64,000 bases of DNA from a virus (Duplodnaviria; Caudoviricetes): positions 1-64,000 of the IMG/VR virus record IMGVR_UViG_3300036793_000060; one strand, written 5' to 3'. Both the position numbers and the translations under genes were made by a program. Of the stretch, positions 7,909-64,000 are shown piece by piece; position 1 is the first letter of the stretch; the number at the start of each line of letters is the position of its first letter. Under the pieces are notes generated by a model. The model saw nothing but the letters and a program-made list of their open reading frames with translations. It was not told where the DNA came from and ran no database searches.

Positions 7909-8194
7909 CGGTCAGCCCGTCCCTGCGCAGGTGGTACAGCCCCTGCTCCTCCAGCGACACGCCAGCCCCGCGCAGCTCCATCCCGGTCCAGGCGCAGATC
8001 TCCATCGCAAGCGCGACGGTGGTCACCCGCGTCCCGTTCTCAAGGCGGGACAGCGAGTTGACGTTGATTCCCAGGTCTTTCGCCAGCTCCCAGCAGGCAA
8101 GGTGGTGCAGGGCACGCCAGGCGGCGATCCGGCGGCCGAACCGGATCGCCTCCTCCTGCGACAGGCGCGGCGTGCCATTCGGGTAACTCGGCAT
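7886..8194 (-). CDS. XRE-family HTH protein
   Basis: FGRRIAAWR....LAKDLGINVNSLSRLENG. Confidence 0.85.
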   Translation of the reverse strand: MPSYPNGTPRLSQEEAIRFGRRIAAWRALHHLACWELAKDLGINVNSLSRLENGTRVTTVALAMEICAWTGMELRGAGVSLEEQGLYHLRRDGLTGAEPPVR

Positions 8195-12655: not shown

Positions 12656-12814
12656 GTGCAGTGGCAGGCGACCGCCATCCTGCAGAACGGGGCGGTCATG
12701 CTGTTCGGGCTGGCGGCCGAGAACAAGACGATGGCGTCAGCCAAGGCGTGGGGCAGGGTCGCCGCGCTGCTGGTGGCTGACGTCCACGTCGAGGAACTGC
12801 AGGTCATCCGGTTA
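12656..12814 (+). CDS. Small hypothetical protein; apparent end at TTA 12812-12814 overlapping the pol ATG (formal stop at 12940)
   Basis: TTATG overlap mimics TAATG/TGATG coupling. Confidence 0.5.
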
Positions 12815-14574
12815 TGGGTGCCCTGCAGAGCGTCCGGCTTCACCTGGTCGACAATCTGTCCGCGCTCGATGAGTGCCGCAGGTGGGCAGGGAACAGCAGG
12901 CCGTGCCCGCTGTTCTTCGACACCGAGTCCGGCGGGCTGAACCCCTACCGGGACCGGATGCGGCTCCTCCAGCTGGGCGACATGACCGACGGCTGGGCGT
13001 TCCCCGTCCACTGGGCGGGCGCGGCGGCCGAGATCCTGATGGCCTACGAGGGGCCTCTCGGCGCGCACAACCACGGATACGACTGGCGCGTACTGCAGCA
13101 GAACCTGCCAGGCATCCGGCCGCTCTGGCACAAGACCGAGGACTCGCTGACGCTCGGGCACCTGGACGACTCGATGAAGCTGGCTGGCCTGAAGGAGCGG
13201 GCCGAGATAGAGGTCGACCCGACCGCCGCGAGGGGCCAGGCAGACCTCCAGGCGGGCATGAGGGCGAACCGGTGGACGTGGGGCACCGTCCCCGCCACGT
13301 GGGCGCCTTACTGGTGCTACGGCGCGCTCGACCCCGTGCTGGCGGCGCACCTGTGGATGACGCTCGGGCCGCGCGTGCTGCCCAGGTACCGGGAGGCCTA
13401 CGACCTGGAGCGGGCGGTCATCCGGATCTGCGCGGGGATGATGGACCGGGGGATGATGGTCGACCTGCCCTTCATCCGGGAGAAGATCGCCGACATCGAG
13501 CGGTTCACCGCGCAGGCCCTGCCGTGGCTGCGAGAGAACTTCGGCATCGAGACGGTCAACAGCGGGCCGCAGGTGATGCGGGGCCTGAACAGCGCCGGGA
13601 TCCAGACGGTGGTGCTCACCGAGGAGGGCAACCCCTCGATATCCAAGGAGGCGCTTGGCTTCTACGCGGGCGCCTACCCCGAGCACGCGGCGCTGATCAA
13701 CACCATCCGGCTGTGCCGCAAGGCGGGCGACCTGACCGGGAAGTACCTGGGCAAGTTCCTGGCCATGCAAGACGACGGGATCATGCACTACTCGATCTGG
13801 CCATGCCGAGCGCGCACATCGCGGATGAGCGTAACCGACCCGCCGATGCAGACCTACGACCGCGACGAGCCGGTAGTCCGTGGCGCGTACATCCCGAGGC
13901 CCGGCCACGTGCTGGCGCCCATCGACGCCGACCAGTTCGAGATGCGGCTCACCGCGCACTTCAGCGGCGACGCCCAGCTGATCGCTGACTTCCTGGAGGC
14001 CGAGCGGAACGGCCAGTCGTTCTTCGTCCTCGCCAGCGGGAGAATCTACGGGGAGCAGGTCTCCAAGAAGGACCCCCGGTACAACTACACGAAGAACTCC
14101 AGCTACGCGCAGGTGTACGGGGCGTCGCTCCGCAAGGCGGCGGCCACGGCGGGCGTGCCCGAGGCGCAGATGGGCGAGGCCTACTACGGCTTCCAGCGGC
14201 GCTATCCGGGGGTGCCACGGCTCATGCAGCGGCTGATCTACGCCGCGAAGAGGCGGGGAGGCCGGCCATACGCCGACATCATCGACGGGCGGCGGCTCTG
14301 GGTGCCGAGGGGCCACGAGTACGCGATCCTCAACACTGAGGTCCAGGGAGGCCAGGCGGTGCTGATGAAGCGCAAGCTCGTCGAGCTGGACGCGGCCGGG
14401 TTCGGCGAGTTCATGGACCTGACCATTCACGACGAGATCCTCTTCGAGTTCCCCGAGAAGGAGGCGGAGAGAATGCTGGCCCAGGCTACGGAGCTGCTTA
14501 CCGACCGCACGTCGTTGGCAGTTCCCATTACCTGGAGCGGGACAATTCTTAGGGAGAGATGGCGCAAAACATGA
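12814..14574 (+). CDS. polA: Family A DNA polymerase with 3'-5' exonuclease
   Basis: ExoI FFDTES, ExoII HN..YD, ExoIII YGALD; motif A IDADQFEMR, motif B KNSSYAQVYG, motif C IHDEI. Confidence 0.95.
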   Translation: MGALQSVRLHLVDNLSALDECRRWAGNSRPCPLFFDTESGGLNPYRDRMRLLQLGDMTDGWAFPVHWAGAAAEILMAYEGPLGAHNHGYDWRVLQQNLPGIRPLWHKTEDSLTLGHLDDSMKLAGLKERAEIEVDPTAARGQADLQAGMRANRWTWGTVPATWAPYWCYGALDPVLAAHLWMTLGPRVLPRYREAYDLERAVIRICAGMMDRGMMVDLPFIREKIADIERFTAQALPWLRENFGIETVNSGPQVMRGLNSAGIQTVVLTEEGNPSISKEALGFYAGAYPEHAALINTIRLCRKAGDLTGKYLGKFLAMQDDGIMHYSIWPCRARTSRMSVTDPPMQTYDRDEPVVRGAYIPRPGHVLAPIDADQFEMRLTAHFSGDAQLIADFLEAERNGQSFFVLASGRIYGEQVSKKDPRYNYTKNSSYAQVYGASLRKAAATAGVPEAQMGEAYYGFQRRYPGVPRLMQRLIYAAKRRGGRPYADIIDGRRLWVPRGHEYAILNTEVQGGQAVLMKRKLVELDAAGFGEFMDLTIHDEILFEFPEKEAERMLAQATELLTDRTSLAVPITWSGTILRERWRKT

Positions 14575-19517: not shown

Positions 19518-19817
19518 GTGAAGGCAAGAGGATGGGCTATCCAGTACAAGTTCCCGCTCCCTTATGACATCATCGTGACGAACGACGTCGGCGAGCACGT
19601 GATCGTGAATGTCCAGTCAATCGAGGTGCCTTTCGATACCGAGGCGTCGGCACTGGGCGCAGCCGACGACGGACTTCCGAGGGTTATCGCCAAGAACCAG
19701 GTCGTGGAGGGGGAGGTAATCACCGATGATAGCGATCAGCAATTCAGAGATCGCGCTGTGGAAGCGGTGCCGCCGTCAGTGGTACCTAAGGTATTACCTT
19801 GGCATGCGGCTGGCTGA
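19518..19817 (+). CDS. Hypothetical protein overlapping the nuclease gene; in-frame TTA at 19794
   Basis: GTG start 2 nt after the upstream stop. Confidence 0.5.
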   Translation: MKARGWAIQYKFPLPYDIIVTNDVGEHVIVNVQSIEVPFDTEASALGAADDGLPRVIAKNQVVEGEVITDDSDQQFRDRAVEAVPPSVVPKVLPWHAAG

Positions 19818-27095: not shown

Positions 27096-27331
27096 TCACC
27101 AGGAGCGAGGCCAGGGCGGACGCGCTGAAGCTGGAGTGCCCGTTCTGCCAGGCGAAGCCCGGCAGCAGGTGCCGCCAGCTCACGTCGCACCTGGCCGGGC
27201 AGATGTGGTCGGACAAGCCGGCCCGCGACGCGCACGTGCAGCGAATGATGCTCGTGCCCGAGTGGGCGGCCCGAGAGAACGAGAGGAAGCACGCTGATGT
27301 GGCACCAGTGGGATCTTCGGCTAGCAGGTTA
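27092..27331 (+). CDS. Zn-finger protein; apparent end at TTA 27329-27331 (formal stop at 27493)
   Basis: CPFCQAKPGSRC...AHVQR; the frame after the junction is a shadow of the next gene. Confidence 0.6.
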
Positions 27332-41188: not shown

Positions 41189-41509
41189 TAACGCTGCTGC
41201 GGCTGGCTTGCGCCCCGTCGCCCTGTCCAGGTCTTCCTTCATCTTCGCAAGGTCGATGACGTCCACGCCAGCGTCCACGTTGCTGCGGATCGTCGGTCCC
41301 TGCGGGGCCTTCTCCTCCTGGAGGGTGAACGGCACGTCCTCATCGGCCACCATCCCCTCGATGTACGTCTTCTGGATATCCCAGCTGAGGGTGTCCCACT
41401 CTGAGGCACTGATCTGCAGGTACTTGCGGACGACATACAGGATTACCCGACGGCTCAGCGCTTCCGGCTGCTCGCTGGCTGCGCTCCACCGCCGGTCGCG
41501 GCTTCCGGG
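41189..41509 (-). CDS. Tail assembly chaperone frameshift extension (T); apparent end at TTA 41189-41191
   Basis: -1 frame relative to G from candidate slip site CCCGGAA (41503-41509); no real stop until 39836. Confidence 0.55.
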
Positions 41510-62043: not shown

Positions 62044-63705
62044 TCACCCCCCTAGCTTGCCGGTAGGCGAGTTCATCGAGGGCTTGGACGGGGGCCGTGG
62101 CGGGCCTGCGGGCGCCTGCTGCACGCGCGGCTGGCCGGCCTGCCCCGGCGTGCCCCCTGCGCGCTGCCCTGGCGCCGGGGGAGGCCGAAGCCCTCCGTTC
62201 TGCGCCCCGGCCTGCTGGGCGATGCCGAACGCGGCGCTGGTCATGCCCTGCATGGCGCCCAGGCTGCCCGCTGCCTCCGGCGGCATGCCGGGCGGCGGGT
62301 TCCCCGCCAGCTGCTCGGCGCGCTGGTTGGCGGTCGAGGACAGCGCCTCGTGCACCGCGTCCACGTCCAGCTGCAGGATCGAGGCCATCCGCTCGCAGAT
62401 CATGTCGAACACGGGCAGCGGGATGTGCATGGCGGGCGCCGCGTTCAGCTGGCCGAACAGGGTCATGATCGCCTGCGCCTGCTCATCCTCCAGCGGGCCG
62501 AACTTGAACGTGGGGAAGACGGCCTTGCTGCCGAAGTTGAGCAGGATCAGCGGCCGGATCACGTCGTAGGCGATCGACTCGGAGATCTCCGTGGCGATTG
62601 CCTGCCTGGACTGCAGGAAGAAGCTGGACTGGTCCTGGGACAGGGCGAAGCTGCCCTTCCCGCCGGTAGCGCTGCCGGTCAGGGCGAGGAACCCTGCCAG
62701 GATGCTGTGCGTCTGCCAGCTCTCCAGCCAGGCCATCGCCTCGGAGAAGAACTTGCCGCCGTCGCCGCTGCCCTCCAGCACCTCGAATGTCTTGGCGTTG
62801 TCGCTCGGGCGCTCCAGGCCGACCACGCCGCTGGACTTCAGCGAGGCGATGTCGCTCGCCTTGGCGTTGGCCTCGTTCTGGTCGTTGCCGTAGACGATGG
62901 TGCGCGGCAGGGCCTGGTTCTCCAGGAAGTGGTACCAGAGGTACAGGAGCTTCATCTTGGTCTGGTAGCACCAGTAGCAGACCTCAAGCTCGGACACGCC
63001 GGTCATCGGCTCGCGGTACTTGCCGTGGGTGTAGATGTAGCTGCGCATCCGTGGGATGTCGACGTAGCCGGGGACCTTCTGCTTGCGCTGCACCATCAGG
63101 TTGCCGCCGAACAGCCACACCTGCTGGCGGAACCCGTTCGGCTCGCCGCTGCGGTCGTTGTAGCGGGCCTGGCAGGTCGCCGGGGGCCGGTAGGCGATCT
63201 TGTCGTAGATGACCTTGCCGTCGCTGTCGCGGATCTTGAACGTCTTCTCGAAGAAGGACCGCCGGAAAATCTGGGCCGACGTGACCTGGCCTATCAGCTC
63301 GGACATCGGGGTCTTCATGCCGCCCTCGGAGTCCGGCGTCATCAGGACGCTGTTCGCCAGCTTGGCCTCGCCGCTGTCCCCCTTGCCCCCGGTTATCGAC
63401 CTGTCTGCCTGCCTGATCGGGAGGGTGAGTGCCTGCGCCAGCGCTGCGGAGATGCCGTCGCGGGAGAACATGACCTTCATGTCCCTCGCGCCCCACTCGC
63501 CTTAAACCGTAGTCAAAGACATCACCTTCCCCATAGTACGCAAACAACCTCTGACCCCAGTCAAATTGGGTAATTGCGTGCCGATCTCCGGACCAAGCAG
63601 CGAGCGCCTACCTCCGCCCGCAGACTTGCTCCCCTTTGGGGGAAGATCAGGAAACTCAACTACATTCTCTAGTCCAGCTACCTTCTTCTTGGATGAATCA
63701 ACCAC
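62044..63705 (-). CDS. Portal protein (DUF935/Mu gp29-like); 5' part split over three frames by two TTA-containing inserts
   Basis: Continuous ORF 62044-63480 with portal motifs (G.SEL...YW, GSFALS); 5' extension reconstructs to 548 aa. Confidence 0.85.
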
Positions 63706-63772
63706 AGTGGCATCACCTCCCTTGCTTTCGGGCGGCGTATGCCGCTGAGGACTTGCTGCTCATCATGCCCGC

Positions 63773-64000
63773 TCAGCGGTAAGGATGCACGACCGCTCGC
63801 CCAGACGGGCGTGCTGACTCGTCGTCGTCGGCCGGCTGGGGGGCGAACCCGTCGGGCGTCCAGTCGCCGCCCGCGACGTTGTAGGCGCCTCCGTGCGCGG
63901 TCACCAGGCGCCTGCTGGCCTGCGCCTCCTTGCTCGGCTCGGTGGGCGAGAACCCGAGCGAGCCGCCCGCCGCGTCCAGGATCGCCGAGTCGGAGTCAGT
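63773..64000 (-). CDS. 3' end of upstream gene, probably terminase large subunit (partial)
   Basis: Open frame runs off the window and stops at 63773; call based on position before the portal only. Confidence 0.45.
   Translation of the reverse strand, partial: TDSDSAILDAAGGSLGFSPTEPSKEAQASRRLVTAHGGAYNVAGGDWTPDGFAPQPADDDESARPSGRAVVHPYR

Follow-up and report, generated by a model that had tools for sequence, protein, structure and literature searches.

Architecture of the Split Portal Gene

The window analyzed here corresponds to bases 1-64000 of the 77,089-bp IMG/VR record IMGVR_UViG_3300036793_000060, the genome of an uncultured soil phage with direct terminal repeats that is 100% complete according to CheckV and has a GC content of 68.4%. 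A portal gene follows the large terminase gene on the minus strand, and its coding sequence is split into three pieces by two short coding gaps, both of which begin with a TTA codon. The portal gene was assigned to the Portal_Mu/DUF935 family by profile searches, which gave a match to PF06074 (E 2.8e-32, profile positions 7-318 of 336) and a match to the portal profile phrog_113 (E 8.7e-36). The 3' end of the large terminase gene occupies 63773-64000, the whole gene extending from 63773 to 65617 in the full genome.

The first piece of the portal gene (piece A, 63574-63705, minus strand, as for all portal features below) starts with a GTG (63705-63703), 10 nucleotides (nt) downstream of a Shine-Dalgarno-like GGAGG read from the sequence at 63716-63720. 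It continues for 43 codons up to a CAA (63576-63574), the putative take-off codon of a first ribosomal hop, and its product, ...FPDLPPKGS...LLGPEIGTQ, matches the N-termini of the contiguous homologues P0002-P0006. The first coding gap (63566-63573, 8 nt, TTACCCAA) was delimited by frameshift-aware alignment to the family profile. It is composed of a TTA (63573-63571), which would occupy the aminoacyl (A) site, the dinucleotide CC (63570-63569) and the candidate landing codon CAA (63568-63566). The second piece (piece B, 63506-63565, FDWGQRLFAYYGEGDVFDYG) consists of 20 codons in another frame, from TTT at 63565 to the take-off codon GGT (63508-63506), and is followed by the second coding gap (63499-63505, 7 nt, TTAAGGC) with its TTA (63505-63503), a single A (63502) and the landing codon GGC (63501-63499). 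The third piece (piece C, 62044-63498) starts at GAG (63498-63496), includes 484 codons and the stop codon, and holds the Portal_Mu domain. Since the two gaps add up to 15 nt (8 + 7), pieces A and C are in the same frame and only the 20 codons of piece B are off-frame.

Joining the three pieces in silico produced a stop-free sequence of 548 amino acids (aa), 83.6% identical to P0002 over 550 columns. An initial annotation of this DNA had placed the portal gene and its gaps at these positions, every coordinate being correct to the base. It had also predicted that hopping over both gaps would yield a 548-aa open reading frame (ORF) from the GTG at 63705 with its GGAGG, and this frame is indeed open and conserved from end to end. 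Its claim that reading the first TTA as leucine leads to a stop was likewise borne out: the stop codon of the frame of piece A, TAA at 63504-63502, overlaps the second gap and closes a 67-aa ORF.

The Split Segment in Contiguous Homologues

We surveyed the 120 best database relatives of the portal. Most of them were 520-550 aa long and uninterrupted at both junctions, reading ...EIGTQFDWGQRLFAYYGEGDVFDYGEWGARDMKVMF... without a break across the region that is split in the window, with the consensus ...FPDLxPxGS...EIGTQFDWGQRLFAYYGEGDVFDYGEWGARDMKVMFSRDG... for the contiguous homologues. The spacing of 64 residues across the split region was identical in all 93 homologous proteins matched by the anchor pattern (93/93). 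The alignment of portal homologues that had been proposed in the initial annotation showed that the middle segment is contiguous in them and that the two TTA-led gaps are absent from contiguous homologues. The closest portals from cultured phages, those of Streptomyces phages, were only 38% identical at the protein level, so that there is no cultured model, and a megablast of the locus against GenBank phages returned no match. A homologous and contiguous N-terminal segment was nevertheless present in one of these 38% identical proteins, the portal gp7 of the Streptomyces griseus phage Intolerant. Because the homologues are contiguous, share the same spacing and have this counterpart in a cultured phage, the alignments indicate that the split segment is a genuine, indel-intolerant portion of the portal. 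The only in-frame length changes observed in the DNA loci covering this segment were an extra in-frame ATG codon at the FD^MG position in L047 and L049 (FDMMGQ) and a one-codon deletion in L134.

Codon comparisons showed that the interrupted alleles had accumulated mostly silent changes. In the split region of eight pairs, each consisting of an interrupted locus and its nearest contiguous relative, we counted 131 synonymous and 32 non-synonymous codon differences. Piece B of the window encodes the same protein as the corresponding stretch of L002 and differs from it by synonymous changes only, which affect 11 of the 20 codons as aligned, or 10 when the final glycine codon is taken as the genomic GGT; this argues that piece B is translated in its own frame. 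The sequences thus indicate that the split pieces are under purifying selection.

These results bear on the possibility that the functional portal is a shorter, 478-aa form (P0001) starting at the ATG at 63478-63480, the upstream part being a decaying remnant or encoding a separate 67-aa product. This ATG is the start chosen by gene callers here, the corresponding short form is annotated in about 22 of the 120 best homologues, and the Pfam Portal_Mu profile starts near its methionine. This methionine is nonetheless internal to a conserved RDMKxMF motif in all relatives and so provides no evidence of a start, and a convincing ribosome-binding site at a suitable distance is absent. The perfect conservation of the piece B protein despite synonymous changes at about half of its codons, the codon counts of the eight pairs and the contiguous segment of the cultured Streptomyces phage portal all speak for a translated N-terminus. 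The synonymous excess in the split pieces excludes a decaying remnant, as well as the 478-aa form as the sole product, and we consider this explanation as a whole very improbable.

An AlphaFold2 model of the closest contiguous homologue, built from a 48-sequence alignment, had a mean predicted local distance difference test score (pLDDT) of 52, with values below 50 for residues 1-66, too low for the model to be usable for the N-terminal segment. A sequence search against solved structures gave an alignment only from about residue 100 onward, to portals of the P23-45/G20c type.

Recurrence of the Gaps in Related Phages

To the window we added related loci from IMG/VR (63 loci), GTDB (2 loci) and JGI/ENA metagenomes (41 loci), along with 10 "short-form" portals chosen on purpose, and called gaps with a custom frameshift-aware profile-to-DNA aligner. 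Among 72 distinct N-terminal regions, we found 26 frame-restoring gaps in 18 phages, namely the window and 17 others. Interrupted genes made up 7 of 61 regions (~11%) in the part of the sample not chosen for short forms, and all 10 of the 10 targeted short forms with readable DNA were interrupted; 54 of the first 68 unique relatives were contiguous. The 26 gaps were spread over eight positions inside about 35 codons and measured 2, 3, 4, 5, 6, 7, 8 or 10 nt. Examples (take-off codon/gap/resume codon) are TAT/TTAC/GGT, TTT/TT/AGG, TAC/TAGTTAC/GGC and TTC/TTAACGGGTC/GAC. L087, whose portal is only 71% identical to that of the window, carries the same 7-nt gap at the same site as the second gap of the window.

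The codon that would enter the A site was strongly biased. It was TTA in 22 of the 26 gaps (binomial p ~4e-23, allowing for four equivalent placements per gap), TTG in two and a stop codon in the remaining two (TAG in L120, TGA in L134). The TAG-led gap of L120 (~590-640, TAC/TAG-TTAC/GGC) lies at the YY^G position at which L086 and L135 have TTA-led gaps, and the in-frame gap of L134 (1240-1260, TAC/TGA-TGC/GGC) lies at the same position. These sequences indicate that, as in T4 gene 60, the A-site trigger can be a stop codon instead of UUA. Gaps of 2 nt were found on runs of five T, with CAG TTT TT GAC in L124 and L137 and ATG TTT TT AGG in L047 and L122; they amount to tRNA-Phe re-pairing two bases further on (+2), again on a UUU, while the A site holds UUG or UUA. 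The UUG version is not a sequencing error, since it occurs in two contigs (L124 and L137) from different samples.

We also compared each take-off codon with the landing triplet, defined as the last three bases before the resume codon. The match was perfect in 14 of 26 gaps and extended to two of three positions in the other 12, against null expectations of 3.6% and 18.7%; all 26 gaps thus matched at two positions or more, compared to 22% under the null. Both landing codons of the window are the first triplets in their gaps that match the take-off codon (CAA to CAA and GGU to GGC). Weakly pairing take-off codons ending in A or U were overrepresented (12 of the first 21 gaps versus 2.6 expected), and pairs such as GGU to GGC, UAU to UAC and ACU to ACC would move the tRNA off a wobble pair and onto a Watson-Crick pair. 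Tandem duplication was tried as a source of the landing matches and rejected, as 18 of 77 bases agreed with the preceding ones once the landing codon was set aside.

The recurrence of the gaps also addresses the concern that the split frame is an assembly or sequencing artefact, or belongs to a dead phage whose portal is broken. The genome was assembled from a metagenome, and one relative, L111 (WNGL01067546.1), does contain an ordinary frame-breaking 4-nt deletion, located about 30 nt upstream of the LTLPIR codons, which probably reflects a misassembly or a dead allele. This deletion is devoid of TTA, and we used it as a negative control for the appearance of a random break. The same TTA-led design was present in 18 phages from different samples and assemblers, including the identical 7-nt gap of L087 and the gap shared across samples by L124 and L137, and random indels would produce neither 22 TTA starts out of 26 nor matching landing triplets. 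Of all the explanations considered, an artefact or a dead phage is the one to which we give the least credence.

Translational Bypassing as the Proposed Mechanism

We propose that the full-length portal is made by UUA-triggered translational bypassing of both gaps, a reading to which we assign a probability of about 0.8. At the first gap, the ribosome would stall with peptidyl-tRNA-Gln on CAA in the peptidyl (P) site and, in the A site, UUA, the codon that high-GC actinobacteria use least and decode most slowly. The peptidyl-tRNA would then unpair, the mRNA would slide by 8 nt, and the tRNA would re-pair on the first cognate triplet downstream, the landing CAA. A second hop would follow with peptidyl-tRNA-Gly on GGU and UUA in the A site, a 7-nt slide and re-pairing on GGC. 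Decoding would restart at TTT and then at GAG, no extra residue being added at either junction. The 548-aa portal would be obtained only when both gaps are skipped; failure of the first hop would give a 67-aa peptide and failure of the second alone a 237-aa out-of-frame product.

The same gaps could alternatively be crossed by two compensating programmed frameshifts, -1 or +2 near the first gap and +1 at the second, with UUA decoded as leucine and two or three extra residues at each junction. The gap lengths are compatible with this scheme, since skipping 8 nt has the effect of a -1 shift and skipping 7 nt that of a +1 shift. Rare codons are known as classical stimulators of +1 shifts, and a +1 shift at the related phiHau3 site could not be excluded from sequence alone (Antonov et al., PMC10732093). 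A slippery motif is present at neither site of the window, with no X XXY YYZ at the first gap, and a +1 slip from GGU at the second would bring the UAA at 63504-63502 into the A site. The additional residues would fall in a stretch without length variation in 93 homologues, and the in-frame gaps of 3 and 6 nt as well as the 10-nt gaps of the relatives go beyond shifts of plus or minus 1. The correspondence between landing and take-off codons, far above chance, is predicted by bypassing only, and we favored bypassing over frameshifting because the landing-codon statistics fit this prediction. Paired frameshifts thus appear improbable, although somewhat less so than the short form discussed above.

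Strings resembling GGAG and GGTGAT occur upstream, set by conserved codons that are common to contiguous relatives. Several observations weigh against bypassing. The predicted fold of 63620-63470 was no more stable than that of shuffled sequences (z = 0.33). The landing rule is not clean at every site in the relatives: in 12 of the 26 gaps, the landing triplet agrees with the take-off codon at just two positions, and 10 of these 12 gaps hold an earlier, equally good triplet. Two serial hops would mean a low yield, and we infer the hop and its efficiency from the sequence.

TTA Usage and Possible Control by tRNA Supply

UUA is the rarest codon of the genome. In a crude gene call covering the whole genome, in-frame TTA occurred three times in about 20,900 codons, compared to 1,110 occurrences of CTG. 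No tRNA gene was found in the phage genome, and neither a tyrosine nor a serine integrase was detected in the complete 77-kb sequence. The genome encodes its own family-A-like DNA polymerase (12814-14574, plus strand), with an FDTES exonuclease motif near the N-terminus. The lack of a detected integrase and the presence of this polymerase make the phage look virulent.

Six TTAs, picked up by sequence composition, follow a clear coding signature in frame (2513-2515, 8184-8186, 12812-12814, 19794-19796, 27329-27331 and 41189-41191), and each marks a point at which the coding frame ends or gives way to that of the next gene. At 12814, a TTATG overlaps the start of the DNA polymerase gene, and the TTA at 19794 precedes an ATG. 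The tape-measure gene has its GAGGAGG-GTG start (41175) immediately after the TTA at 41189-41191, and about 450 codons go by without a stop. We rejected these six sites as portal-type hops, as the landing triplet matched the preceding codon in none of them. A tblastn search of the ORFs of five related genomes against this genome, and the reverse, recovered as frame breaks ordinary gene boundaries only, this search being blind to pieces as short as 20 codons; a second bypassed gene in the genome is thus not supported. In this phage and its host, UUA may in effect be a place where ribosomes stall or terminate, and its usage suggests that it is hardly decoded in the host. If so, the portal hops would be constitutive rather than switched.

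The alternative, put forward in the initial annotation, is that bypassing serves as a gate, the portal being made only when charged tRNA-Leu(UAA) is scarce, so that virion assembly would follow the developmental or physiological state of the host. This proposal keeps the bypass mechanism and differs in purpose only. The anatomy resembles that of phiHau3, for which such a model was proposed, UUA is the rarest codon, and the nearest cultured portals are from Streptomyces phages. In the absence of an integrase, a choice between lysis and lysogeny is unlikely, and failing to make the portal would be a dead end for a virulent phage. The only named relatives are contigs of Streptosporangiaceae metagenome-assembled genomes, and to invoke Streptomyces bldA is to extrapolate. 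Two relatives have a stop codon where the others have UUA, and such a codon is no sensor of tRNA-Leu. Finally, the fast turnover of the gaps (at least 11 state changes) and their association with endonuclease-like genes, both described below, are not what would be expected of a conserved regulatory device. We therefore regard gating as speculative and unlikely.

A Possible Link Between Homing Endonucleases and the Origin of the Gaps

The gap trait has changed state repeatedly. On the portal-core tree, at least 11 changes were required for 14 interrupted rows, at least nine of them forced by well-supported branches, and the near-identical cores of L047/L049 and L027/L039 differed in gap state. 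In close pairs, DNA identity dipped only in an N-terminal patch of about 300 nt; for L047/L049, values of 0.75-0.86 in the patch stood against 0.95 upstream of it and 0.93-0.99 in the core. The N-terminal ~40 codons of interrupted alleles also had a lower GC content at third codon positions (GC3) than those of contiguous ones (0.76 versus 0.91, p 2e-6), the core being unchanged at about 0.9. The corresponding region of the window is 63440-63600, and the rare codons TTG, AGG, AGA, TAT, GAA and GGT are frequent in gap-bearing alleles. This low GC3 could result from recoding of a target site against an endonuclease, from a co-conversion tract or from a context favoring the hop.

Searches with the C-terminus of the terminase showed that, in relatives too, the gene called as terminase precedes the portal, and several relatives have an additional ORF at this junction. 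In L027, L086 and L091, the ORF directly upstream of the portal matched the HNH/homing-endonuclease profiles phrog_826, phrog_1492 and phrog_314, with E values down to 3e-13, and the ORF of L091 contained a NUMOD3 motif (34 bits), the only Pfam match among the upstream ORFs; the HNH assignment is thus based on PHROG profiles and on annotations in cultured actinophages. HNH/NUMOD3-like ORFs between terminase and portal were located at L027:882-1313, L086:27-452 (minus strand), L091:3-515, L023:934-1269, L087:172-489, L135:159-560 and L137:647-1060, with a remnant at L090:185-340. The members of this junction family are about 140-170 aa long, lie in either orientation and are sometimes truncated. 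Within the set that we examined, the family was nearly confined to phages with gaps in the portal N-terminus. Cultured Mycobacterium and Gordonia phages have homologues at various places in their genomes, annotated as HNH endonuclease or hypothetical protein, and in G002 and G003 they are far from portals that are contiguous.

Of the 14 interrupted loci that were judged, 8 had an HNH-like ORF immediately before the portal, compared to 0 of 44 contiguous loci (Fisher p 1.6e-6). Phylogenetically independent pairs supported the association between ORF and gap by 5-6 to 0 (sign test p 0.03-0.06). The gaps might thus be part of, or immunity scars of, a free-standing HNH homing endonuclease at the terminase-portal junction, the window being an endonuclease-less descendant or a resistance allele. 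The terminase and the portal start are separated by only 68 nt in the window, which leaves no room for an endonuclease ORF between them. On the sequence evidence, we take this link as the leading account of the origin of the gaps and give it roughly even odds.

A more specific version, in which the UUA-led micro-gaps and the free-standing HNH endonuclease together make up a mobile cassette, placed where the terminase and portal genes meet in this large clade of uncultured actinophages, is plausible but slightly short of an even chance. The gaps, together with the burst of synonymous changes, would break the target of the endonuclease in the conserved sequence encoding the portal N-terminus, and hopping at a nearly unreadable codon would pay the cost of the broken target. 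The signs that a gap would confer such immunity are indirect, namely its association with the ORF, the local patch of divergence and the surplus of synonymous changes. The window would then hold a descendant devoid of the endonuclease, or else a resistance allele for which co-infecting relatives had selected.

The endonuclease link is weakened by several points. The contiguous locus L131 has an HNH-like ORF, six of the judged interrupted loci have none, and no homologue of the HNH ORF of the relatives was found anywhere in the genome of the window. The test that controls for phylogeny is borderline, its p value ranging from 0.03 to 0.06, and terminase-adjacent HNH proteins can also be packaging factors.

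Comparison With Known Bypass Systems

Translational bypassing is well established for T4 gene 60 and its homologues and for one yeast mitochondrion, while actinophages have supplied one candidate class. Programmed bypassing is among the rarest recoding events, and the portal clade described here makes a large natural series. This series amounts to a set of mutants, in which 26 gaps differ in length (2-10 nt), in take-off position (eight in all), in how well the landing codon matches and in the A-site codon (UUA, UUG, UAG or UGA), and from which the rules of short-range hopping in high-GC bacteria could be read. It also implies that about 1 in 10 portal genes of the clade is mis-annotated as N-terminally truncated.

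The closest precedent is the large terminase gene g6/7/8 of phiHau3, which contains two 10-nt UUA-led gaps (Smith et al., 2013, J Bacteriol 195:4924; PMC10732093). The initial annotation was thus right in stating that TTA-linked bypassing had been proposed for a few Streptomyces phage genes. The full-length product of the phiHau3 gene was observed in Streptomyces, and when UUA was changed to UAA a junction peptide revealed bypassing in E. coli (Antonov et al., 2023, PMC10732093). The signals put forward for phiHau3 were a 5' stem-loop and Shine-Dalgarno-like sequences, and UUA-gapped terminases were present in 3 of 100 surveyed, phiHau3 and two Streptomyces prophages (PMC10732093). Both cases concern an essential, low-copy virion-assembly gene of a high-GC actinophage that avoids UUA elsewhere, and in both the UUA comes right after the last conserved codon, with two serial gaps at junctions that are highly conserved in homologues. 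They differ in the gene, terminase versus portal, and in gap length, 10 nt versus 8 and 7 nt (2-10 nt in the relatives). A stem-loop was proposed for phiHau3, whereas no stimulatory structure was detected here. Gaps are also more frequent in the portal clade (~11% of the unbiased sample, with many independent gains or losses, versus 3/100 terminases), stop codons or UUG sometimes replace UUA, and no integrase was detected in the phage. The association with HNH-like ORFs is absent from the 2023 paper (PMC10732093). No portal case of UUA bypassing was found in the literature that we searched, and the extension of the phiHau3 kind of UUA bypass to another gene, in unprecedented numbers, appears strongly supported by the sequences.

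In T4, the HNH endonuclease MobA and the bypass gap of gene 60 form a single mobile cassette in which the gap blocks further nicking, and some genomes keep the gap after loss of the endonuclease (bioRxiv 10.1101/2022.08.31.505936; see also Bonocora et al., 2011 for the cassette). The portal gaps resemble gene 60 by their matched take-off and landing codons and a hard-to-decode A-site codon, and the gene 60/MobA pair by the free-standing HNH-family endonuclease directly upstream of the gapped gene in many relatives, by a divergence that is local around the gap and by the existence of a gap without endonuclease, as would be the case in the window. In contrast, T4 has a 50-nt gap with a UAG stop, a take-off stem-loop and a nascent-peptide signal at one site in a topoisomerase gene, whereas the portal gaps are 2-10 nt long, mostly UUA-led and spread over eight positions, with no structure detected. 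In addition, the endonuclease ORF of the relatives lies between genes and not inside one, and the window has no endonuclease. If the endonuclease link is true, the gap-as-self-immunity logic of T4 would have arisen twice, in unrelated phages and with different trigger codons. If the cassette is real, it would be an independent high-GC counterpart of T4 mobA/gene 60, and bypassing would be a recurrent way to shield conserved coding targets from homing endonucleases, rather than a one-off.

The mitochondrial byp elements are inserts of about 27-55 nt that are structured and reside in a eukaryotic organelle with a different genetic code. As described for Magnusiomyces capitatus (Lang et al., 2014, PNAS, as cited in PMC10732093), they share with the portal gaps the presence of many short bypassed inserts, matched take-off and landing codons, an unreadable or unassigned first codon, and signs of mobility and turnover. 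The portal genes differ from them in having one or two gaps each, all within a single region of 35 codons.

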